From positions 4,261 to 68,260 of IMG/VR virus record IMGVR_UViG_3300044845_000779: 64,000 bases of DNA. One strand, given 5' to 3'. The stretch's first letter is position 1; each line of letters begins with the position of its first letter. This DNA comes from a virus. Position numbers and translations under genes: made by a program. This document shows positions 33,881-64,000 of this stretch, piece by piece. The notes under the pieces are model-generated. The model did no database searches. It saw only the letters and a program-made list of their open reading frames with translations, and had not been told where the DNA came from.

Positions 33881-34915
33881 TTACAGCTGTATCAGGCCTA
33901 CGCTTTTCTTGGTGTGGCCAGGCGCCAAGTGCGCATAAATCTCGGTCATCAGGATAGTCGAATGGCCCAATAATTCCTGCACTTCGCGTAGGGATACTCC
34001 CGCCATGACCAGATGGGAAGCAAAAGTGTGGCGCAAAGAATGAAGGTGGATTTCAGGCGGCAGCAGGGCTGCGTCGGCCTGGGCCCGGAACTTGGCAGTC
34101 AAGTAGTCCCTCGTCACACGGGGCAAGACGTAGCGCATGCCGCCAGTCAAAGCCCTGAGTGCATCAAGCGCTTCGCGCGCGCCGTCGTTGAGCGGCACGT
34201 CTCGAGACTTGCCCGACTTTGTGCGGGCCGTGGTGCGCGAGACGATCGAGATGAGCTCGCTTTGCACGTCGCCCCACTGCAGATTGAGAGCCTCAGTGCG
34301 GCGCATGCCAGTGTTGACATAGAGCTTCCAGATTGGGGCCCAATGCGGCTCAAGGGTTTGAGCGTGCAGATAAAGCGCCTCCATATGCGCTTTGGTCGCA
34401 AAAGTTGGCTTTACTTTGGCTGCACGCGGCAAATTAGGAAACCGCGCAGTCGGTAACGGCGACACTTGGATTTTGCCCCAAGCCACTGCCTTATTGAGCA
34501 TTGCGCGCAACGTGGCAATTTCGTTATTCGCCGCTGATGCCGCCACTTGCGTGCCGCGATTCAGCTTCCACATTTCGGCTTGTTGTAGCGGAATCGAATC
34601 GATTCGGTATTTGCCCAAACCCGGCACAATGACTTTCCTGATTCGCTTTTCTACATCGTAGTGCGTGTCAGGAAAAGCCTGGGAATACCAAACAAGGTAT
34701 TCCTCGGCAAATTCGGCAAGTGTTGGCGCTGCGGAAATACGCAGCCGGTGCATTACCTGCACGTTGCCCGCCAGCTCGAGTTCTTTAGCAAGCCGAAATG
34801 TTTCGGCCTGCTTTTCGGACATCACTTTCGTTTTGCCGAGCGTTTTGCGGTGCTGCTTGCCGGCTTCATGCCACTGGAGAACCCAGGAAGCACTTCTAAT
34901 ACGTACGGTTGCCAT
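33881..34915 (-). CDS. int: Tyrosine recombinase/integrase
   Basis: TGMRRTE (R), KSGK, HSLRH, LLGH and catalytic Tyr in TEIYAH. Confidence 0.95.
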   Translation of the reverse strand: MATVRIRSASWVLQWHEAGKQHRKTLGKTKVMSEKQAETFRLAKELELAGNVQVMHRLRISAAPTLAEFAEEYLVWYSQAFPDTHYDVEKRIRKVIVPGLGKYRIDSIPLQQAEMWKLNRGTQVAASAANNEIATLRAMLNKAVAWGKIQVSPLPTARFPNLPRAAKVKPTFATKAHMEALYLHAQTLEPHWAPIWKLYVNTGMRRTEALNLQWGDVQSELISIVSRTTARTKSGKSRDVPLNDGAREALDALRALTGGMRYVLPRVTRDYLTAKFRAQADAALLPPEIHLHSLRHTFASHLVMAGVSLREVQELLGHSTILMTEIYAHLAPGHTKKSVGLIQL

Positions 34916-54262: not shown

Positions 54263-54967
54263 TCACTGCCCGTCCCTGGCCTGCACCGGCTCAGCCACCG
54301 GCTCGGCCTGCTTTGCGGTCTTTTCTCTTGCAACTTCCCACGCTAGCTTTGCAAGCGGCTTGGCGTCCATTTGCCCTGCCGCGAATGCACTATGAAAACC
54401 GTGGTTATCCCACCAATCTTCAAACGATTGAAAGTGCCACGCCACCGGCTCGGCCTGCTGGAGTGCGGCGCGGAGTGCGGTGATCGTCGCGTCCTGAATC
54501 TTTAGCACGGACATCAATCGCTCGACCTCGCCGCCCATCGGCTCGGCCACCGGCTCAACCACCGGCTCGGCCTGCTGGGGTGCGGTTGTTGAGTAGAGAG
54601 GTAGCCAATAGGTAGCGTCCCAATCAGACCCTTTGGGGCTGTTAGTTTCTCGTCGCAATAGCCCTGTCTCTTTGTGCATCCACGCCACCGGCTCGGCCTG
54701 CTCTTTGTAAATGCTCGCCGGGTCAATTCGCTTGTCGCCTTGCATAATCCCAAGGCCCAACGCGAGTACGTCCTCAAATGTTTGAACCACCGGCTCGGCA
54801 ATCCGATTCTCAATCTCTCTCCAATACTTCATTGCTGCATCTCGACCCTTGAACCAAGTTTTGACCCGCCAGTCGCCTACCCCGTAAGGGCACACTGCGT
54901 CGCCGTCGCTGGCGCTGCGCTGCCCTTCTTGGTACACGCGCATTCTTTCTGCTGCATCTGGACTCAT
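54263..54967 (-). CDS. Modular QAEPV-repeat protein with N-terminal RMF-like module
   Basis: AGGAG RBS; modules separated by QAEPV; YQEG...CPY...W..G. Confidence 0.7.
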   Translation of the reverse strand: MSPDAAERMRVYQEGQRSASDGDAVCPYGVGDWRVKTWFKGRDAAMKYWREIENRIAEPVVQTFEDVLALGLGIMQGDKRIDPASIYKEQAEPVAWMHKETGLLRRETNSPKGSDWDATYWLPLYSTTAPQQAEPVVEPVAEPMGGEVERLMSVLKIQDATITALRAALQQAEPVAWHFQSFEDWWDNHGFHSAFAAGQMDAKPLAKLAWEVAREKTAKQAEPVAEPVQARDGQ

Positions 54968-55735
54968 TTGTTTTCTCCTTTCACCGGCTCGGCCTGCTCT
55001 TTGTCAACTTTCGGTGCTGACTTTGTCAACGCTTTGTCAACCGGCTCGGGCTGCGGGGGTGGGCGTGTGTAGAGCACACGCTCTTGGTATGGCCCGCCCC
55101 CGTCTTCGTGGTCGGCGTGTCCGTCATACCATTCCGCGCAATGCCGCTTGCGGAACTGCACAACCGGCTCGGCCTGCTGCTTCAGCCAATTAATCTCGAC
55201 GAGACACACATCCAACTTGCTTAGCTCGGCTTCTGCGGCATCAAAAAACGGCTCGGCATCAAGCCAATCCTCCCCTGTCATTGCTAAAGAACAGAAGATC
55301 CGCAGTCGCTCCAGCGCATTGCCAGTGTAAGTCTCGACGTCTTCAGCGATCTCGTTGTAGCGGGTCAGTGCAGACACCGGCTCGGCCTGCTCTTTGTCAA
55401 CTTTCGGTGCTGACTTTGTCAACGCTTTGTCAACCGGCTCGGGCTGCTGCGGATCCACGTAATCCCACACCCAGTCAACCCACGCCACTGGCTCGGCCTG
55501 CTTCCTCTTGCAATAACCGCGACAGTCACACGACTCATGCCCGCACGACACCGGCTCGGCCTGCACCGGCTCGGCCTGCTGGGGTGTGACCAGCCCAAGA
55601 CGTAAAGCCTGCCGCAGAACTTCTTCTACATCACGAGCGCCGATGCCGCGCCAGACCTCGCATTTATCACCAACGCGCTCGGCTACCGTTTGCAGCCTTT
55701 CTTCTGGGAAATTGGCCTGCACCGGCTCGGCCTGT
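54285..55735. repeat. Dispersed 15-bp repeat ACCGGCTCGGCCTGC (9 exact copies plus near-copies) and a 73-bp exact duplication
   Basis: Exact copies start at 54297, 54444, 54561, 54687, 54983, 55163, 55376, 55550, 55565; 54982-55054 equals 55375-55447. Confidence 0.92.
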
Positions 55736-55956
55736 CGCTGGGAAAGAGCGACGACCTGCTTTGGCGCAGCGCGAAGTGCTGCTTCAAGCAAAGGACGAAT
55801 TGGCTCGCGGCATGCCATATCGTCGTGCGCGAGATACGCTGCATTGACCATCTCATCAGTGATTTGCTCGGGCCAGAGCGGTATCGGCGTTGGCCGTTGC
55901 AGCATCCAGTACTCAAGTTCAAGGCATCTGAAGTAGTTCAAACTGTCGGCTCTCAT
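54964..55956 (-). CDS. Modular QAEPV-repeat protein
   Basis: Multiple QAEPV/QPEPV junctions; ATGA coupling; start inferred. Confidence 0.7.
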   Translation of the reverse strand: MRADSLNYFRCLELEYWMLQRPTPIPLWPEQITDEMVNAAYLAHDDMACREPIRPLLEAALRAAPKQVVALSQRQAEPVQANFPEERLQTVAERVGDKCEVWRGIGARDVEEVLRQALRLGLVTPQQAEPVQAEPVSCGHESCDCRGYCKRKQAEPVAWVDWVWDYVDPQQPEPVDKALTKSAPKVDKEQAEPVSALTRYNEIAEDVETYTGNALERLRIFCSLAMTGEDWLDAEPFFDAAEAELSKLDVCLVEINWLKQQAEPVVQFRKRHCAEWYDGHADHEDGGGPYQERVLYTRPPPQPEPVDKALTKSAPKVDKEQAEPVKGENK

Positions 55957-56084
55957 TGCGGTATCTCGATAAGTGTGGGTTTGCACTCGCGTTTCACGGC
56001 AAAATCTTCAACAAAATCAGCAGCGACGTAGATCACAAACGCGAACAGCAGCAGAAAATATGAAATGTTGTCGATGATTCTCAT
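55953..56084 (-). CDS. Small membrane protein (43 aa)
   Basis: Translated by eye: MRIIDNISYFLLLFAFVIYVAAD...; ATGA overlaps at both ends. Confidence 0.6.
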   Translation of the reverse strand: MRIIDNISYFLLLFAFVIYVAADFVEDFAVKRECKPTLIEIPQ

Positions 56085-56743
56085 AGCTTAATCACTTGTT
56101 CAGCCTGCTTGGCGTTTCTCTCCCGCAATCTTTCTTCGACCAGCAACGCAACGTCCGCTGCGTATTGCCCGTACGGGGCCAGCTCGTCCATGTCTGCGTT
56201 GTCCAGCCCAACCCACGCCACTGGCTTGTCCTGTTCTTTGTAAACTTCCGGCTGGCTGGTTGTTAACCTATCGGCCACAGGAACAGGCTGTTCCAGTACG
56301 TGTGCAGCCATTGACAGGGCTTCAATGTCGGTGGCGTCCCATTCACCATCAAATTTGGCGATAAGTTGGCGCAGTTGTTGCGCCACCGCTGCCGCTCGCA
56401 GGTCAGTTTGTTGTGGCTTGTTTGCGGCTTCGATTTGGTCGATTCTGGCCGCGGCGCGGATGACGGTTTGAGTGCAGTTATCGCCCCAGGCGAGCCATTG
56501 AAATCTGTTAGTGACGACTGCGCCTACAGCCCAGCCGTTTGTGCTTGGTTTACCCGTAACTGTCATGGTGTGCTTTGCTATCAAACGCTGCGCTTTGAGG
56601 TCATCTGCTTCGTTTTGCTGCCAGCGCGACAGAGCGGTTTCTAGTTTGATAATCATGGCTGTGCGCCCCCCGATGCTTGCGTGGCGCAAGTCGTCTTTGA
56701 TCCACTTCAGCACGTCTAGGGCGGCTTGCTCGAGTTCGGTCAT
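56081..56743 (-). CDS. Modular accessory protein with degenerate PVAW junctions
   Basis: KEQDKPVAW, KQAEQV; ATGA coupling. Confidence 0.6.
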   Translation of the reverse strand: MTELEQAALDVLKWIKDDLRHASIGGRTAMIIKLETALSRWQQNEADDLKAQRLIAKHTMTVTGKPSTNGWAVGAVVTNRFQWLAWGDNCTQTVIRAAARIDQIEAANKPQQTDLRAAAVAQQLRQLIAKFDGEWDATDIEALSMAAHVLEQPVPVADRLTTSQPEVYKEQDKPVAWVGLDNADMDELAPYGQYAADVALLVEERLRERNAKQAEQVIKL

Positions 56744-57129
56744 GCTGGCTCTCCGCTGTCTGTTGATTTCATGGCTGCGCGCGCGATGTCTGAGATCGAT
56801 CGGCGCAAAGCGGTGGCAGTCATCTCGTCCAGTGCGCGGCTGTTGCACTTGCCGGGCCCAGTGGTGCCGTATTCAGCCAGCAGCGCAATTTGCTTGAGTG
56901 CTTGCTCTTGCGCTTCCACAGGCTGCTTGGTGTACACCTTGTCGCCTTTTTTGAGCTCGCTTGATCTGAACCCCACCATGTCACCGATCTTGGTTGTGAT
57001 GGTGTATTCCGCTGTGGTGTGGATGTGCTGGGCCCAGGCGGCCAGTTGTGCGCGCAGCTCATCGCGTTGGGCGAGTACGCATTCAGGCCTTGTGCAGTAA
57101 TAACTGCAGCTGTGAATTGAGGTTGTCAT
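56740..57129 (-). CDS. Hypothetical protein (HSCSYYC..P.C..AQRDELR motif)
   Basis: Cys/His motif; ATGA coupling. Confidence 0.65.
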   Translation of the reverse strand: MTTSIHSCSYYCTRPECVLAQRDELRAQLAAWAQHIHTTAEYTITTKIGDMVGFRSSELKKGDKVYTKQPVEAQEQALKQIALLAEYGTTGPGKCNSRALDEMTATALRRSISDIARAAMKSTDSGEPA

Positions 57130-57355
57130 TTTTATCTATCCATCCATTTGCCGATGGCCATGCCGAGAATAAGGCCCACGATAAACACAATGACGTTTTC
57201 AATTTTCATTGTGTTAAAGACCTTGGTGTATTCCATGCACAGGCTTGGTATAAAGCTCATATTCATTTTCAGGTGTCCCACTGTGATCGCCCCCCGCCTG
57301 ATAAGGCGGCGCACGCTCCGACCGTTGAGAGTCAGAGCGTGCGACTGTGAGAGCG

Positions 57356-58366
57356 TTAGACCAGATCGTCAAGCAAATCGGCCGCAGTTGCGGTCGAATT
57401 CACCTTTGCGACACCATTGCCGCGGGCGTACGCCCGTTGCTGCGCTTGCTTGGCATCAGCCAGCACGCCCCTGACCGTCAAGATCTTGGGCTGGTTCAGC
57501 CAGTCCTTTGCTTGCATTGCCACCGCATGCAGCGCAGTCGAGGCACTGATGGCGTCTTCGACCGACATCATCCGATTGGTAAGCAGCTTGGCCGATTTGG
57601 CCAGGAGCTTGTCGTGGATGCGTTCAGCAATGCTGAGCTGTGCGCCGATGGAGAGCGCTACAAAGTCGTCAACGGTGTGGCCGGTGTTGAAGCTGTTGGC
57701 TTCGGCCAGAACGTCTTTGGCGGTTTCGCTCCACTTGCTCGCCGCGGCTTTTGCTTTTGCTTGCGCGTCAGCGACCGCCGTTCTGTACTGGTCCGGGAAC
57801 CGAGACTTGACGATGTCCAGGCGCGACTTGTCGTCGGTCGACAACTGACCTCGGATGTCAGACCAGAAGTCGAGCAGCCCTTTGAGCGACATCGGCAACG
57901 AGTACGCGTACGCGGGGTCGGTGGACCCTTCATACAGTGCGATGCTGCCGTTTGGCACGTCGCGGCACTCGTGCAGCTGGTCATAGAGCGAGTTTCTGAT
58001 GCCGTCGCAGATGTTGGCCTCCTCGGCGTCGTTGACGCGCGGTTCGTGCCCGCTTGCGTCTGTGAGGTAGGCCTTGATCGCCTCGCCACGAGTGGCTTCG
58101 TCTTGCTCATTGCGCTCATCGAGCGTGGAGCCCGATTCGCTTGCGCGCTTTTGTGCGTTGATGTGCTTGACCAGGCTCCACATCACTGAATTGGTGAGCG
58201 CGTTGCAGCTGATCTTGATCACCTCGACGCGAGTCTCAGTGTCGGACGGTGCGTCCATCAAATGCGTCAAGAAGTTTGTCGAGAAACTGACCGCGGGTGT
58301 GGCGGTGGTTTCGGTTTCGAAGTTCATGGCGGCCATGGTGCCGGTCGGGATGCGATGCGTTTTCAT
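57356..58366 (-). CDS. Hypothetical helical protein (336 aa)
   Basis: AAGGA RBS; phage-like codon bias. Confidence 0.7.
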   Translation of the reverse strand: MKTHRIPTGTMAAMNFETETTATPAVSFSTNFLTHLMDAPSDTETRVEVIKISCNALTNSVMWSLVKHINAQKRASESGSTLDERNEQDEATRGEAIKAYLTDASGHEPRVNDAEEANICDGIRNSLYDQLHECRDVPNGSIALYEGSTDPAYAYSLPMSLKGLLDFWSDIRGQLSTDDKSRLDIVKSRFPDQYRTAVADAQAKAKAAASKWSETAKDVLAEANSFNTGHTVDDFVALSIGAQLSIAERIHDKLLAKSAKLLTNRMMSVEDAISASTALHAVAMQAKDWLNQPKILTVRGVLADAKQAQQRAYARGNGVAKVNSTATAADLLDDLV

Positions 58367-58403
58367 ATGAGTGATCCTTGAAGTTTTGAGATTTGAGATT
58401 GGT

Positions 58404-58589
58404 TTAGCGAATGTTGCGCAGGTTGCGCACGTGCACGAACAGGTAAAGCACTTCTGAGTCGGACAGACCCTCCTTCATTAAGCGGTCTCGGTTCTCTTGC
58501 AAGAGTTCGAGCCGCAGTTCCGGCGTAAGCAAGTCCATGGGCTCACGAGCGCCGTGCTCGTTGAACCCATACTCGTCGTCACGAGTCAT
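58404..58589 (-). CDS. Hypothetical protein
   Basis: AGGAG RBS. Confidence 0.6.
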   Translation of the reverse strand: MTRDDEYGFNEHGAREPMDLLTPELRLELLQENRDRLMKEGLSDSEVLYLFVHVRNLRNIR

Positions 58590-58620
58590 GGTTTTCTCCT
58601 GAAAAGCGGCTAACCAACAT

Positions 58621-58666
58621 GGCCAGCCGTACAAGACAGCCTGGCCGCCTGGGCGCCAGCACAGGC
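58621..58666 (-). promoter_or_regulatory. Degenerate copy of the two-hairpin early-region element
   Basis: GC-TGGC-GC hairpin followed by GGCCAG...CTGGCC hairpin; lacks the core. Confidence 0.45.
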
Positions 58667-58671
58667 TTTAA

Positions 58672-58845
58672 CTATTGGTAGATGCCCGCTACGAGAGCGA
58701 CATCCCATTGATCGAACAGGCGTTGCACTCGTTCGATCGAGACACCAGTGCGCTGAGCAGTAGCGGAGCTGGTAAGTCCGCTGTGCCAGCAATGCTTGAT
58801 TGCGTTTTCGATCGCGATTGCGACCGGGTCTTTGAATGTGTTCAT
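58672..58845 (-). CDS. Small helix-turn-helix protein (57 aa)
   Basis: Translated by eye: ...GLTSSATAQRTGVSIERVQRLFDQW; TAAGGA RBS. Confidence 0.65.
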   Translation of the reverse strand: MNTFKDPVAIAIENAIKHCWHSGLTSSATAQRTGVSIERVQRLFDQWDVALVAGIYQ

Positions 58846-58858
58846 GGGGGGGTGTTCC

Positions 58859-59137
58859 TTATTTGAGGTAGTTGATGACTCCCGGGTAATAGGTGCGCCC
58901 GTCGATATAACCGACGAGCCATTTGGCTGCGGTGGTCATGCCTGATAAGAGCAGACCAGCAACTGCAGCGGCCATTACGCCGCTGAACGTCCCCCAATGG
59001 AGGACGTATCCTGCGACTGCGCCTGCCAAGTCGAGCCATAAGCCGTATTTGAGCAAGCGCAAGAGTGTGATGCGGGGCAGCTTCCAGAATAGGAAAGCAA
59101 ACCCGCAAAAGATAATGATCCCTGATTCGATGATCAT
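58859..59137 (-). CDS. Small membrane protein (about 3 TM)
   Basis: Hydrophobic segments; HWGTFSGVMAA. Confidence 0.7.
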   Translation of the reverse strand: MIIESGIIIFCGFAFLFWKLPRITLLRLLKYGLWLDLAGAVAGYVLHWGTFSGVMAAAVAGLLLSGMTTAAKWLVGYIDGRTYYPGVINYLK

Positions 59138-59310
59138 TCTCCGAGCTCCATCATTTTGTGTGGGCGTGGATCAACGTGCAGCGTTTGGATGGTGGCCGCG
59201 TGGTCGGCGGGGGTGCGACATATCAGCCAATCGGCTGCTCGCAGAACGCAAACGAAGTGATCGCGGTGATAGGTTTCACCGTCGTACCATTCAACGAGAT
59301 AAATGTTCAT
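59134..59310 (-). CDS. Hypothetical protein (58 aa)
   Basis: ATGA overlaps with an upstream 9-codon mini-ORF and with the downstream gene. Confidence 0.5.
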   Translation of the reverse strand: MNIYLVEWYDGETYHRDHFVCVLRAADWLICRTPADHAATIQTLHVDPRPHKMMELGE

Positions 59311-59427
59311 TTTGTGTGCTTTCGCTGTTTGTTCATGGGGTCCCACCGTTGGCGGGTGGGATTGATAAGACGCAGGTAACCCGGGGGCTATACATCGCCC
59401 CCATTTGGGTTGAGTGGATTGACTGGT

Positions 59428-59730
59428 TTATCGCTTTTGCATGAGGTCGATGACCTCGCTGATTGCGACCGCAAGCCCGATGATCAGGCTGTATTTCGCC
59501 GTGGTTTTGGCCGCGTTGATCGCACCCGGGTGCTTTTCCGCGTACTCCTTGATGCCCATGAGCATCGGTTTGTCGTCGATGACGATTCCGACTTTGGCGG
59601 GGCCGGCGGCGGGGGTGTTTGATGTGGCGTCGTTCATGGTGGTTTGGGTCTCTTTGTCAAAGGGTTTGAGTTTTGCGGGCGTGTCGCTGCGAAGTTCGCC
59701 GCGAAGTTCGATGTGTTCGATGATGTCCAT
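59428..59730 (-). CDS. Small protein with C-terminal TM segment
   Basis: AGGAG RBS. Confidence 0.65.
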   Translation of the reverse strand: MDIIEHIELRGELRSDTPAKLKPFDKETQTTMNDATSNTPAAGPAKVGIVIDDKPMLMGIKEYAEKHPGAINAAKTTAKYSLIIGLAVAISEVIDLMQKR

Positions 59731-59760
59731 GGTGTAACTCCTAATTGGTGATTGAAGGGT

Positions 59761-59821
59761 GTGTGGCCAGGGACAACCCCTGACCTACACACAAGAGACT
59801 GAAAGCCCGGCGCCAGCCGGG
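59761..59821 (-). promoter_or_regulatory. Two-hairpin element, copy 1
   Basis: CCCGGC-TGGC-GCCGGG, TCAGTCT-N4-TGTGTAGGTCAG, second stem. Confidence 0.75.
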
Positions 59822-59842
59822 ATGAGTGGATTGGTTGATTGT

Positions 59843-59989
59843 TTAGATCAAGTGGAATGAAGGCGTTTTGTCCGCGGCTTGCGCCTGTGCCGCTTCATTG
59901 AGCGCCCGTATTGCGGCGAGCAATGCGTACTGCGCTAGTTCTTTTTGTTCTTCTTCGGCCGCGCGCTTATCAATGGATTGGGAAAGCAT
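59843..59989 (-). CDS. Small helical protein (48 aa)
   Basis: ATG downstream of element copy 2; AAGGG RBS. Confidence 0.5.
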   Translation of the reverse strand: MLSQSIDKRAAEEEQKELAQYALLAAIRALNEAAQAQAADKTPSFHLI

Positions 59990-60020
59990 TGGAATGAGCC
60001 CTTTCGTACATGGAGTGTTT

Positions 60021-60084
60021 TGTGAATGGCCAGGCTGAATGCCTGACCTACACAAAAAAGACTGAAACTCAGCGCCAGCTGAGC
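60021..60084 (-). promoter_or_regulatory. Two-hairpin element, copy 2
   Basis: CTCAGC-TGGC-GCTGAG, same invariant core, covarying stems. Confidence 0.75.
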
Positions 60085-60165
60085 ATGACGTGAGTCCCAC
60101 CGTTGGCGGGCCACCCTTCAAATACACGCCACAACCTCGATGAGCCGAGGCTGTGGCGGTAAACA

Positions 60166-60684
60166 TTAGAAGGGCACTTCGCTGTTATCGATTTCCACTT
60201 CAGTGGGTGAAGGCTTGGCGTCGTGCTCGGCTTTCATTTCTGCGCTAACTTTTTCGTAGTTCTTTATTTCTGCGTACAGGCGAGCTAAGAACGGGGGCAG
60301 TTTCTCTGGCCGGTGTATTGCGCTGAGTTGGCTATAGAGATTGCGTCCAAGCGCCTTATCGAGTGCGGAATAGAGCCGTTCGGCTGTTGTGAATCCTCTG
60401 TCGGCGTACACCTTTTCGATGTACGTAATCCATCGAGGCGGCATGCCATCGGTGAGAGGCTCTTTTTTGTCCCATTCGTAGCGAGATACAAGTGCTGGGA
60501 CGTAGCGCGCGCAGAACGCGTCAAGGTCAGCCGGCGTGCGGTCGACGTTGGCGTGCGTTTCGCGGTGCGCGCTGGTTTTAGCTGATGCTTGCGCTTTGGT
60601 GGTTGCGCGAAGCTCTGCGAGTTCGGCGGCGAGGGTTTTGATTTGGGCTTCGAGGGAAGCCATGGTCAGTTTTTGCGTTGCCAT
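60166..60684 (-). CDS. Hypothetical protein with acidic SSB-like C-terminal tail
   Basis: AAGGA RBS; N-terminal coiled coil; ends EVEIDNSEVPF. Confidence 0.65.
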   Translation of the reverse strand: MATQKLTMASLEAQIKTLAAELAELRATTKAQASAKTSAHRETHANVDRTPADLDAFCARYVPALVSRYEWDKKEPLTDGMPPRWITYIEKVYADRGFTTAERLYSALDKALGRNLYSQLSAIHRPEKLPPFLARLYAEIKNYEKVSAEMKAEHDAKPSPTEVEIDNSEVPF

Positions 60685-60712
60685 TTCGTAGTTCCTTGTT
60701 TTGATTGGGGTT

Positions 60713-60928
60713 TTAGAACAGCAGTGCGGCGGCTGCGGCACCGAGAAACGCGCCGAGGCCAGAGACGGCGCTCTGCGTAACCGCTTTCTTCGTGCCATCG
60801 TCGCGCGCGATCGCAACCGCCGAGTCGATAGTCTTTTTCAATGTCGATGCAACTTTGGCTTCGGTGGCATTGGTGGCATTGGTGGCTTCGGGGGTTTGAA
60901 CCGGGGTGCTGCTCTGCTCTGTGCTCAT
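60713..60928 (-). CDS. Small protein with C-terminal hydrophobic Gly/Ala helix
   Basis: AAGGA RBS; first gene of the - arm. Confidence 0.6.
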   Translation of the reverse strand: MSTEQSSTPVQTPEATNATNATEAKVASTLKKTIDSAVAIARDDGTKKAVTQSAVSGLGAFLGAAAAALLF

Positions 60929-60951
60929 CGCTTAGTCCTTCCGTACGTGGG

Positions 60952-61014
60952 GTAGGTGATCAGAGAACTCTCTGACCTACACACGAAAGACTGAGTAGTT
61001 GCGGGCCGTGCCCG
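60952..61014 (-). promoter_or_regulatory. Two-hairpin element, copy 3
   Basis: CGGGC/GCCCG hairpin, same invariant core, CAGAGA/TCTCTG stem. Confidence 0.7.
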
Positions 61015-61310
61015 TGCAGTGACTGAGCACAGCGAAGTGCCATTGACGTGGGACCTACCTGCGCAGCAGTGCAGTGACTGAGCACAGCGAAGTGCAGTGC
61101 TGCGTAGCAGTGACTGAGCTGCACAGGGCGGGGCGGCAGCCCCCCCAGCAGCGAAGTAACTGAGCGCGCAGCGCGAAGTAGCGGCGGCAGCCGTGAGCTG
61201 AGGATCGGCGAGCGCAGCGAACCGAATCCGAAGTGGCCCCGGCATCGCCGGGTCCGGGGGAGGGGGTGTCATCGAAGGACAAATGCAAAAAAATTGTGCA
61301 AATTTTTTTA
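61014..61310. repeat. Repeat-rich divergent region upstream of terS (candidate terminus/packaging or priming signal)
   Basis: 27-bp direct repeat (61014-61040, 61069-61095), GCAGTGACTGAGC x3, GCGAAGT x4, G-run, AT-rich inverted repeat. Confidence 0.6.
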
Positions 61311-61338
61311 CTGCGCCTTCCCCCCGACCGCTTTGTAC

Positions 61339-61379
61339 TCTTACAGTCTTGTGGTAACTGTCTTACAATCCTGTCCAAC
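61339..61379 (+). promoter_or_regulatory. Putative late promoter for terS (near-leaderless)
   Basis: TGTCTTACAATCCTGTC, similar to the capsid promoter; TACAAT ends 10 nt before the ATG; no SD. Confidence 0.5.
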
Positions 61380-62045
61380 ATGCCACGATCCGCCATAACC
61401 ACGGCACAAACTGCCGTATCGCCCCCGCCGCCGCGCCCCAAAGCCGCGAAGGACCGCTTTGCGCAGCTCGTAGAGCGCAAAGCAGCCGGAGCCCTCAATG
61501 GCTACAGCGGCCCACTGAACGAGCGCCAACTCGCTGTGGCGCGCGCGGTAGCCGAGGGCAAGTCGTGGAGAGTCGCCCTGGAGTCCGCGGGCATGCGCGC
61601 GCACCCCGACACGTTGCACAAGTTCCAAGCCGACCCGCGCATCCAGGCGGTGATCCAGCGCGAGGCAAAACGCAGCGCCGAAGTGGTGAACATGACCCGA
61701 AAAAAGGTCATGGACGGCTTTCTGGACGCGATCGAGATGGCCCGCACCATGGCCGACCCCAACTCAATGATCAAAGGCTGGTCGGAAGTGGCTCGCATGT
61801 GCGGCTACTACGCGGCTGAGACGAAAAAGATCGAAGTTTCGTTCTCTGCCAAGCGTCTGATCGACAAATTCGAGACCATGAGCGATGAAGAACTCCTCCG
61901 ACACGCCGAAGCCGAGACGACCATCGACGTCGACGCGATCGAAGTCGACGACGACGGTCAAAAAAGGCTCGAAAACCAGCCAAACGACCAAAACACGGGC
62001 CACGAAGGCGAAATCGACGGTTTCGAAGGGTCAGTCACCCCCTGA
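61380..62045 (+). CDS. terS: Terminase small subunit
   Basis: LNERQLAVARAVAEG...AG, DPRIQAVI, AIEMAR...MIKGWSEVARMCGYY, MSDEELL; directly upstream of terL. Confidence 0.8.
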   Translation: MPRSAITTAQTAVSPPPPRPKAAKDRFAQLVERKAAGALNGYSGPLNERQLAVARAVAEGKSWRVALESAGMRAHPDTLHKFQADPRIQAVIQREAKRSAEVVNMTRKKVMDGFLDAIEMARTMADPNSMIKGWSEVARMCGYYAAETKKIEVSFSAKRLIDKFETMSDEELLRHAEAETTIDVDAIEVDDDGQKRLENQPNDQNTGHEGEIDGFEGSVTP

Positions 62046-62055
62046 AAAGGTCGTT

Positions 62056-63981
62056 TTGACCAAAAACTGCGCGCAGTGCGACAAAACCTGGGCCCGACCG
62101 GCCTGGCAGGCCTACAAATACTGGGAAATCGCGCGTTTTTGCTCCCGCGCCTGCAAGCAGGCCTACGACAAGACCGATCACGGGCGCCTGGAGCGCTCGG
62201 CGCAGACGAAAGCAGCCCAAGAAGCCGGTCACGACAAGAGCGCGCCCTCAATGCAAGAGCTTGCGCTGCCTTCCGAGCTTGCGCAGGGGGTCATTATTCC
62301 GAACCAGGCACCCAACCGTGGGAGTGACACGACGCCGCCCGACATGGGCCCGGCGCTGCGCGAGATGGCCCAGCGGGTGCTGGCGCGCCGCTCGCTTTTG
62401 CAGTTCACCAAGAAAACCCACCCCTCGTACGAGGCGGGCTGGGTGCACGCAGACATCTGCAAGCGCCTGGAGCGCTTTTCGGCCGACGTGGCCGCCAGAA
62501 AGAGCCCGCGACTAATGCTTCTGATGCCCCCGCGGCACGGCAAGTCGGAGCTGGCCTCCATTCGCTTCCCCGCCTGGCACCTGGGCCACCACCCGGACCA
62601 TGAGGTGATCAACGTCGGCTACAACCTGGATCTGCCGATGAAGTTCTCCCGCAAGGTGCGCGAGATGTTTCGCGACAACCTGTACACGGCGATCTTTGCC
62701 GGCGCAAAGCTTGACCCCGACAGTCAGTCGATCGAGGCCTGGAACACCACCCAGGGCGGGGGATTTACCGCGGCCGGCGTGGGCGGCGGTATTACCGGCA
62801 AGGGCGCGCACGTGCTGATCGTGGACGACCCGCTTAAAAACATGGAAGAGGCCGACAGCGCGCAGACCCGCGAAAAGCTGTGGGACTGGTACTTGTCGAC
62901 CGCCTACACCCGCTTGGCGCCAGGCGGCGGCGTGCTGGTGATCGAGACCTGGTGGAACGACGACGACCTGGCCGGGCGGCTGCAGGCTGCCATGCGTGCG
63001 GACCCGCTTTCAGACCAGTTTGTCGTCGTGAAATACCCCGCTCTTGCCGAGAAGTACGAGTTTCGGCACAAGGAAACGCTGCACATCGTGCGCACCGACG
63101 AGCCCGCGCTCTCGCGCGAAAAGCTTGTGGGGGAGGCGGTTGCAGCGAAACTCGTCCACGGGGATAGCACGGATGTCAGCCTGCTGGAGCCGCAGAACTA
63201 CGAGCTCCTGCGCTCCCCGGGCGAGGCGCTGCACACCGCCCGCTACGACGCCACCGCGCTTGGCCGGATCAAGGCCAACCAGGCCCCCCGGATCTGGTCG
63301 GCGCTGTACCAGCAGAACCCGGTGCCAGACGAGGGCCTGTACTTCAGGAAGGATTACGTGCGGCTGGTGCCGGTCACCCCGCAGCCCTACGGGTTGAACA
63401 TTTTTACTGCCTGGGACTTTGCCATCGGCGAGAAGCAGGCCAACGACTACACCGTGGGTGCCACGCTGGTGCAGGACCACATGGACAACCTGTACGTGGT
63501 CGAGATCAACCGCTTCAAGGGCGACAGTTTCACGATCGTGGAAGAGATTCTGAACGTGTACGAGCGCTGGGGGGTGTCGCTCGGTGCGGACTACCTGCTG
63601 GGCTTTGAGGACGGTCAGATTTTCCGCGCTATCAAGCCGCTGCTTGAAAAACGCATGCTGGAGAGGACTCTCTATCCATCTTATGAGATACTCAGACCGT
63701 TGACAGACAAGATGGCTCGTGCTCGGAGCCTGCAAGGTCGCATGCAGCAGGGGCGGGTGTACTTCCCCGAAGACGCACCGTGGCTTTCAGACACCACGCA
63801 CGAGTTGCTGCGCTTTCCGGGCGGCGTGCACGACGACATCGTCGACGCGCTTGCCTGGGCGGTGAATCTGGTGGTCGGAAAGTCCCCGCCACAGAAAACC
63901 CCGCCGCAGACGCTTGTTTCGTGGAAGGACCGGATCGATGGACTCATGGTCGGGTATGAAGGCTCGCACATGGCAGCGTAG
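62056..63981 (+). CDS. terL: Terminase large subunit with N-terminal zinc-finger-like segment (start uncertain: 61885, 62056 or later)
   Basis: MPPRHGKS, GITGKGAHVLIVDDP, ALYQQNP, AWDFA, HDDIVDA. Confidence 0.93.
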   Translation: MTKNCAQCDKTWARPAWQAYKYWEIARFCSRACKQAYDKTDHGRLERSAQTKAAQEAGHDKSAPSMQELALPSELAQGVIIPNQAPNRGSDTTPPDMGPALREMAQRVLARRSLLQFTKKTHPSYEAGWVHADICKRLERFSADVAARKSPRLMLLMPPRHGKSELASIRFPAWHLGHHPDHEVINVGYNLDLPMKFSRKVREMFRDNLYTAIFAGAKLDPDSQSIEAWNTTQGGGFTAAGVGGGITGKGAHVLIVDDPLKNMEEADSAQTREKLWDWYLSTAYTRLAPGGGVLVIETWWNDDDLAGRLQAAMRADPLSDQFVVVKYPALAEKYEFRHKETLHIVRTDEPALSREKLVGEAVAAKLVHGDSTDVSLLEPQNYELLRSPGEALHTARYDATALGRIKANQAPRIWSALYQQNPVPDEGLYFRKDYVRLVPVTPQPYGLNIFTAWDFAIGEKQANDYTVGATLVQDHMDNLYVVEINRFKGDSFTIVEEILNVYERWGVSLGADYLLGFEDGQIFRAIKPLLEKRMLERTLYPSYEILRPLTDKMARARSLQGRMQQGRVYFPEDAPWLSDTTHELLRFPGGVHDDIVDALAWAVNLVVGKSPPQKTPPQTLVSWKDRIDGLMVGYEGSHMAA

Positions 63982-64000
63982 GAAGTAGAGAAAGATGGCC

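Follow-up and report, generated by a model that had tools for sequence, protein, structure and literature searches.

Three copies of a two-hairpin element built around an invariant 23-nt core were found in the leftward early operon of an uncultured phage from lake water. Each copy may act as a compact stop-and-restart cassette of that operon, a tentative reading that we regard as a real possibility. The phage, a distant, integrase-bearing relative of Pseudomonas phage KPP25, is represented by a 68,260-base IMG/VR virus record (IMGVR_UViG_3300044845_000779). The stretch of DNA analysed here, called the window, comprises bases 4261–68260 of that record (64,000 nucleotides), and positions are those of the window. 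The element was observed as sequence, exact repetition, folding potential, compensatory changes, gene context and the lack of a canonical promoter. A preliminary description of the region had proposed an uncharacterised cis-acting system, which fits the outcome of a search of positions 57000–64000 on both strands against Rfam, where no match was obtained at E up to 1.

The core, TCAGTCT-N4-TGTGTAGGTCAG on the − strand, was recovered three times in the window by pattern search at up to three mismatches, and none of 100 shuffled sequences gave any match. The same three sites, and no more, were obtained from the whole record at the same tolerance. All 19 specified positions are identical across the three copies, and the flanks have diverged. 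The copies span no more than 1.2 kb of one operon. In each of them, 43–53 nt separate the end of the core from the ATG of a small open reading frame (ORF), with a Shine-Dalgarno-like stretch present, and 17–28 nt separate the end of hairpin 2 from the same ATG. Both the three exact cores and their placement just upstream of the ribosome-binding site of a small gene had been stated in the preliminary description and are borne out. Because the core is identical at 19 of 19 positions amid diverged stems that have changed on both sides, the pattern points to selection by a sequence-specific reader rather than to recent duplication. Peptide conservation was considered as a cause of the core and dropped, as inspection by hand showed that the ORFs crossing it run in different frames in copies 1 and 2.

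Read 5' to 3' on the − strand (the sense strand for the genes), each copy consists of a GC-rich hairpin 1, an unpaired stretch containing UCAGUCU-N4, and hairpin 2 (Table 1). Hairpin 1 is CCCGGC-UGGC-GCCGGG in copy 1, GCUCAGC-UGGC-GCUGAGU in copy 2 and CGGGC-ACG-GCCCG in copy 3, in agreement with the preliminary description. Its folding energy lies between −8 and −12 kcal/mol, and a U-rich tail follows it in copies 1 and 2. The 3' half of the core (TGTGTAGGTCAG, 5' arm UGUGUAGGUCAG) pairs into hairpin 2, an imperfect stem interrupted by a bulge or internal loop, with energies of −23.8, −20.5 and −17.3 kcal/mol in copies 1, 2 and 3. The covariation described for this second stem was found again, but its described length was not, the stem really measuring 14–15 bp with the 3' half of the core included.

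Eleven pairs of hairpin 2 are common to all copies, and in a three-row alignment all of their cells are paired (33/33); when the partners were slid by one to three columns as a control, 35–41% of cells were paired. Two pairs are altered on both sides (GC to AU and GC to CG) and three on one side via wobble, a covariation signal that comes from three copies and has very little statistical power. The loops differ (GUUGU, AUUCA and GUUC). Opposite GGUCAG stands CUGGCC in copies 1 and 2, with one U-G pair, and CUGAUC in copy 3, with one G-U pair. Such pairs can form on the − strand only, so that the stem is complete on that strand alone. The earlier claim that the G-U pairs are restricted to the − strand therefore stands, though the − strand gives the better fold of the two strands in copies 1 and 2 and not in copy 3 (+ strand −18.9 kcal/mol). 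By eye, the 3' arm of hairpin 1 may alternatively pair inside hairpin 2, with a near-copy of its own 5' arm: GCCGGG with CCUGGC in copy 1 (59806–59811 with 59760–59766) and GCUGAG with UUCAGC in copy 2 (60068–60073 with 60028–60033). Copy 3 has no such pairing.

Table 1 Coordinates of the element and of neighbouring features in the window.
Feature	Positions	Strand	Description	Basis
Core TCAGTCT-N4-TGTGTAGGTCAG, 23 nt	59780–59802, 60043–60065, 60972–60994	−		pattern search
Copy 1	59759–59821	−	hairpin 1 59806–59821 (UGGC loop); core 59780–59802; hairpin 2 59759–59792	covariance model, 93.1 bits
Copy 2	60018–60084	−	hairpin 1 60067–60084 (UGGC loop); core 60043–60065; hairpin 2 60018–60057	covariance model, 91.3 bits
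Copy 3	60946–61014	−	hairpin 1 61002–61014; core 60972–60994; hairpin 2 60946–60985; ahead of first early gene	covariance model, 65.7 bits
Proposed fourth copy	58621–58666	−	two hairpins, without core; membership doubtful	preliminary description
100-aa ORF	59428–59730	−	behind copy 1; no PHROGs or Pfam family; no relative in 87 loci	
48-aa ORF	59843–59989	−	behind copy 2; no PHROGs or Pfam family; no relative in 87 loci	
Terminator-like hairpin	60127–60158	−	14 pairs, tail TGTATTTGAA; directly 3' of the 172-aa gene, ~60 nt upstream of copy 2	
172-aa ORF	60166–60684	−	next after the 71-aa ORF	
First early ORF, 71 aa	60713–60928	−	behind copy 3; no family; no relative in 87 loci	
Tyrosine integrase	33881–34915			profile scans
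Virion protein, 2271 aa	24984–31799			profile scans

The preliminary description had also counted a fourth copy, said to keep both hairpins and to lack the core. Two hairpins are indeed present there, one at 58647–58666 with the same GC-UGGC-GC top and one at 58621–58646 formed by GGCCAG...CUGGCC, but family membership was not upheld. The fold is no better than that of shuffled sequences (z −1.08), and the site is absent from the 28 hits (E up to 10) of a covariance model built on the three copies.

The core sequence is private to this phage as far as the scanned public collections go, none of which yielded a convincing match. In IMG/VR, a pattern shortened to 15 bases returned 38 single hits, and not one of them is preceded by TCAG. 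The full pattern gave one hit in genome_contigs and two in metagenome_contigs (GTDB genomes and JGI metagenomes), none in a hairpin context as judged by eye. In 80 terminase-relative loci (757,849 bases) there was no core at up to four mismatches and there were ten chance-like matches at five, and a blastn search of the region against 50,697 phage records gave no match.

Though the core is private, the two-hairpin architecture is a family trait. Relatives with a terminase 55–66% identical carry, at the same place, their own non-homologous hairpin-plus-block elements in three to four copies. One relative (G001; 72,102 bases, terminase 65% identical) has exactly three copies of GCCGTTGGC-N5-GCGAATCGC, in its first three early spacers, each running from a hairpin whose triloop is GUU and whose lower stem covaries, through an unpaired 9-mer, into a long second hairpin and a ribosome-binding site. 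Further sets, judged by eye among the loci listed, comprise four copies of CGUGC-UUCG-GCACG in L083, two of which have directly behind them a terminator-like hairpin plus U tract, immediately ahead of the ribosome-binding site, and three copies each of CGC-UGAA-GCG in L062, of an own element in L099/L100, of CAGC-AA-GCUG in L117 and of GCGCGGC-GUU-GCCGCGC in L056. A clear U tract follows the hairpin in L056, resembling an intrinsic terminator. The first early spacer of the same locus scored highest with the covariance model after the three copies themselves (18.0 bits, rough E 0.006), with an alignment that covers hairpin 1, the U/GU tract, UGUGUA and hairpin 2. An automatic count of hairpin-linked repeats, which gave 23 of 49 loci, was discarded as too noisy. 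In KPP25 itself, the first early spacer holds the hairpin GATTCGC-GGA-GCGAATC, whose 3' arm recurs in the G001 block GCGAATCGC.

Under the stop-and-restart reading, hairpin 1 together with the U-rich 5' half of the core (UUUCAGUCU-N4-UGUGU) would attenuate or end the upstream message, and the invariant 23-nt block would serve as a non-sigma70 start signal. The block would be read by a factor private to the phage lineage, either an unrecognised phage protein acting on the host RNA polymerase or an unrecognised polymerase. A new message would start within or just before the block and would thus carry hairpin 2 at its 5' end, where the hairpin could protect the message and keep the downstream ribosome-binding site free. 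Termination, initiation, the location of the new 5' end and the private reader are steps that we infer from the arrangement of the sequences. As detailed below, no sigma70-like site was found on the early strand, so the first genes would need another start signal, and ahead of the first early gene the core is the sole conserved block. Copy 2 lies about 60 nt past a strong terminator-like hairpin, the only such site called on the − strand in 56000–62000. The resulting order of terminator, element and gene is counted in favour of a stop-and-restart layout.

Comparison with the relatives also bears on the nature of the reader. The block is invariant within the genome and the relatives have unrelated blocks, which argues for a phage-private reader and against host RNases, host sigma factors and Nus factors. 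The sole detectable relative of the element, in L056, precedes the first early gene, and this position is more natural for a start or leader signal than for a cut site between cistrons. In addition, (T)CAGTCT(C)TT, which is the 5' half of the core, looks by eye like GGAGTCTCTT, a family-wide box found at the head of the early block in 15 of 39 distinct relatives, and the resemblance is counted for the start-signal reading.

Known promoter classes were looked for at the copies and elsewhere. No sigma70-like site was found on the − strand in 56000–62000 by promoter scan, nor in 58300–61450 under a looser rule (8 of 12, A2/T6). Sigma70-like GTCT-TACAAT, GTCT-TACACT and GTCT-TACTCT sites with passable −35 boxes do precede other genes, so host-type promoters exist elsewhere in the genome. 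Specifically, GTCTTAC (10 matches against 3.2 expected) occurs at 1280, 49168, 53952 and 61360, running into TACAAT, TACTCT, TACACT and TACAAT ahead of the capsid, ATPase, primase and small terminase genes, respectively. These sites, which have the upstream GTCT in common, are probably middle and late promoters of the host type. A sigma54 promoter (TGGCAC-N5-TTGC, its GG and GC doublets set 10 bases apart) was rejected by eye, the GG/GC spacing being wrong in two of the three copies: the pattern fits copy 1 alone, as TGGCGC-N5-TTTC, the spacer of copy 2 is N4, and TGGC is missing from copy 3. Sigma70 and extracytoplasmic function (ECF)-type readings of the core were dropped after inspection by hand. 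The statement in the preliminary description that the core fits neither sigma70 nor sigma54 thus agrees with these scans, and its remark that no phage RNA polymerase is recognisable held for the 62 ORFs compared with PHROGs and the 58 compared with Pfam.

Several points weigh against the stop-and-restart reading. The profile comparisons just mentioned yielded no RNA polymerase or sigma family, with about 20 small ORFs lying outside the scan. For the 2271-aa virion protein, a sequence search of the PDB at E up to 1 gave no match, distant folds still being possible, and no DxDxD motif is conserved between it and four relatives. A phage factor acting on the first genes would have to enter with the virion, for which no support was found. 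The terminator rule does not call hairpin 1, and in copy 3 seven non-U bases separate hairpin 1 from the core. The G-U pairs of the − strand and the overlap of core and stem would fit a purely RNA-level element equally well. Finally, the element is present in three copies and has no close homologues.

The large virion protein was examined further. It has no Pfam match at E up to 1, and scans of the large virion proteins for T7-type polymerase motifs and DxDxD found nothing conserved. A six-frame search with PF00940 gave no match and was uninformative, as the control matched in no genome. The first 1300 residues resemble, in the ESM Atlas, only clusters of polyvalent proteins with LPD22, a domain of such proteins, and a tblastn search of the same residues against phages gave no match. 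Four homologues of 2229–3416 aa were detectable, all partial, sharing about 220–330 N-terminal and 560–900 C-terminal residues around a hypervariable middle. A more specific form of the start-signal idea is that the block is the promoter of an unrecognised polymerase or specificity factor of KPP25-like podophages, delivered by the virion, perhaps encoded in the hypervariable middle of this ~2300-residue ejected protein and varying together with the private three-copy promoter. We consider that form quite improbable. It would resemble the phage-private promoter systems of coliphage N4 and Thermus phage P23-45, and the enzyme here would be unrelated to theirs.

For N4, hairpin promoters are described with 5–7 bp stems, 3-nt loops and purines at −11/−10 of the template strand, together with a virion polymerase of 3500 residues (Lenneman and Rothman-Denes 2015, PMC4496689). 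The two phages share three early signals before the first genes, each a small GC hairpin with conserved bases that is phage-specific and not sigma70-like. Unlike N4, the present phage has no recognisable virion polymerase, the loop is the 4-nt UGGC in copies 1 and 2 while copy 3 has ACG, and the hairpin stands upstream of the invariant part; the N4 combination of stem length, triloop and conserved purines was not found. For P23-45, private motifs at pre-early promoters and terminators and two phage polymerases with DxDxD are described (Chaban et al. 2024, PMC10770324). Strongly conserved phage-private motifs are clustered at the early genome end in both phages, those of P23-45 marking transcript starts and ends, whereas no conserved DxDxD was seen in the large virion proteins here. 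Both systems would be functional analogies that lack their polymerase in this phage.

The closest described system is the promoter-early stem-loop (PeSL) cassette of T4-type phages, which combines a stem-loop with a strong sigma70-like early promoter and an AT-rich upstream part around ORFans (Arbiol et al. 2010, PMC2839356). Both are repeated short spacer cassettes of a hypervariable early region, with a stem-loop that is a possible attenuator, a ribosome-binding site and an ORFan. By proposal, both would isolate and restart transcription and provide homology for gene shuffling. The present element differs in its lack of a sigma70-like site, its GC-rich region, its two hairpins, its 23-nt phage-private block and its three copies. 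ORFans and differing gene content at the cassettes, which characterise PeSLs, were also found here: 12 of the 14 early ORFs are without a relative in the 87 loci (the two others encode a 92-aa membrane protein and a 336-aa protein), the genes behind the copies are ORFans, and both the genes and the elements at the site are different in the relatives. Because the defining sigma70-like promoter is absent, the element is not a PeSL, and it may work similarly.

The likeness to PeSL elements drawn in the preliminary description accordingly fails as regards the promoter. Its suggestion that the early genes are exchangeable cassettes fits the ORFan genes, the analogous elements of the relatives and a variant contig. 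This single contig (depth 2.46) diverges at 59967–60014, just 3' of hairpin 2 of copy 2, and leaves the element unchanged. Contigs of four lake-water DNA runs are otherwise nearly identical to the window and provided no usable covariation, and none of the 24 listed sequencing runs is on record as RNA.

The strongest rival, less likely than a stop-and-restart cassette and still to be taken seriously, is an RNA punctuation site. One long early message would be cut in the single-stranded UCAGUCU by a host RNase or a phage-private endoribonuclease, leaving hairpin 1 on the upstream 3' end and hairpin 2 on the downstream 5' end, where both would stabilise the pieces in the manner of the RNase III sites in the T7 early message. 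The layout of hairpin, unpaired conserved block and hairpin in both this phage and G001 agrees with such a site, as do the confinement of the G-U pairs to the transcribed strand, the placement of copies between cistrons and the lack of a recognisable promoter at the copies. Host RNases, however, do not need 19 invariant bases, and a consensus across related phages would be expected of them, of which none was seen. PHROGs and Pfam revealed no recognisable nuclease gene in the early ORFs, the strong terminator-like site before copy 2 falls inside the supposed single message, and copy 3 and the L056 element stand ahead of the first gene, with no cistron upstream of them to be cut off. The RNase III sites of the T7 early region are single long interrupted helices of about two turns, located between cistrons and cut by the host enzyme. 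They too are structured RNAs ahead of successive early genes, mutually related within the genome, that leave hairpins on the ends of the pieces. In contrast to them, two hairpins flank an unpaired invariant block here, the 14–15 pairs of hairpin 2 would be short for RNase III, copy 3 stands before the first gene and the blocks of relatives are unrelated.

An antitermination site of the nut/put kind, at which the nascent RNA, alone or with a small phage protein, would let polymerase pass early terminators, is unlikely. A two-hairpin RNA with a conserved unpaired block would suit this role, copy 3 would lie downstream of the early promoter, wherever that is, and lies upstream of the strong terminator-like site, and in L083 terminator-like hairpins directly follow two of the four copies. 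Yet lambda nut and HK022 put sites have a conserved loop or a two-stem structure and occur once per operon, after the promoter, which suffices there. In this phage, three sites lie within one operon, the loops of hairpin 2 vary, the loop of hairpin 1 differs in copy 3, no arginine-rich N-like protein was noticed by eye among the translated early ORFs, and Rfam gave no match. An antitermination RNA, a processing site and a phage-factor promoter, the three possibilities raised in the preliminary description, are not separable by sequence. We lean towards the promoter type over put/nut because three copies lie within 1.2 kb of one operon and the hairpin 2 loops are not conserved.

Very doubtful is a DNA operator, in which the asymmetric double-stranded core would be bound by a phage regulator that silences the early genes in lysogeny or late infection. 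The phage has an integrase, and its asymmetric sites share one orientation, are placed in short spacers and vary from relative to relative in the manner of immunity specificities. For a nearby 57-aa ORF, a helix-turn-helix was matched weakly, at an E of 0.0038 that falls short of the Pfam cut-off. The L5 stoperators of mycobacteriophage are asymmetric, oriented repressor sites, present in large number throughout the genome, whereas just three sites were found in the 68,260 bases at up to three mismatches, all of them in the early operon. No repressor was identified, there is no promoter for the sites to overlap, and an operator would not account for the way in which the 3' arm of hairpin 2 follows the core, through compensatory and wobble changes that suit one strand.

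Quite improbable, finally, is a recombination scar or linker, that is, a remnant of duplicated intergenic cassettes offering homology patches for gene swapping and having no regulatory reader: it agrees with the ORFan genes, with the 73% identity between the spacer upstream of copy 1 and that at 59396–59428 and with the variant contig, but neutral leftovers would decay evenly, against a core identical at 19 of 19 positions between stems changed on both sides, and 23 bases of homology are short for efficient recombination.

The element owes its value to the question of how KPP25-like phages transcribe their first genes. Should the block be a start signal, as the stop-and-restart reading has it, this phage group would open infection from promoters not expected to be read by host sigma70 and with no phage polymerase visible, which would point to a hitherto unseen way of launching early genes. 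If it is just a processing or attenuation site, it would be one more example of a common theme. Cultured members of the group (KPP25, R18 and A1002) are under development against Pseudomonas aeruginosa. Since each relative maintains, at the same site, three to four hairpin cassettes of its own around small genes that change rapidly, the group could be a usable model for the swapping of early genes in phages.

The closest named phages are KPP25, R18 and their kin, with 63.1% identity in the capsid and 38.7% in the primase. Besides the genes of Table 1, a large terminase (61885–63981), a portal (beyond the window), a capsid, a family A DNA polymerase, an SNF2 helicase and a primase-helicase were found. 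The element heads a leftward gene block that extends from about 61000 down to the integrase and is divergent from the terminase operon.

Other repeats were noted around the element. The repeat CCGCCAACGGTGGGAC has two exact copies on the − strand (59340–59355 and 60094–60109), one in the spacer before a 58-aa ORF and one upstream of copy 2, and folds as a small hairpin, CCCGCC-AAC-GGUGGG, with one G-U pair. Iterons occupy 61014–61165 and reach up to 61240; they comprise GCAGTGACTGAGC in three exact copies and one variant, an exact repeat of a 27-nt unit, and recurring ACTTCG[GC] words, and they include TCAGTCA, which is near the TCAGTCT of the core. The sole AT-rich patch adjoins them at about 61270–61310, and the region could be a replication origin or a packaging region. 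At 54263–55986, two adjacent early ORFs (234 and 340 aa) are rich in the repeat QAEPV and match no family, and a family of 11-mer repeats lies at 55038–55724. In KPP25 (L004), the early region contains an AT-rich gap of 660 nt at 2220–2880 with three direct repeats of about 40 nt.

A family-wide non-coding motif, CCACTTCGGAT(TCGGTTC), is found at 61226–61236 on the − strand of the window, in the early-gene sense and between the early block and the small terminase gene. At up to one mismatch it occurs in the window and in 50 of the 80 terminase-relative loci (L043–L122), often in the loop of a long inverted repeat. A genome terminus at the motif was considered, as several contigs end nearby, and was set aside: one complete record has the motif at both of its ends, so that assembly breaks in a repeat explain the contig ends equally well. 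The box GGAGTCTCTT follows the motif after exactly 22–23 nt in 15 of 39 distinct relatives, the window being without the box there. This fixed spacing looks promoter-like, with a packaging site as the alternative.

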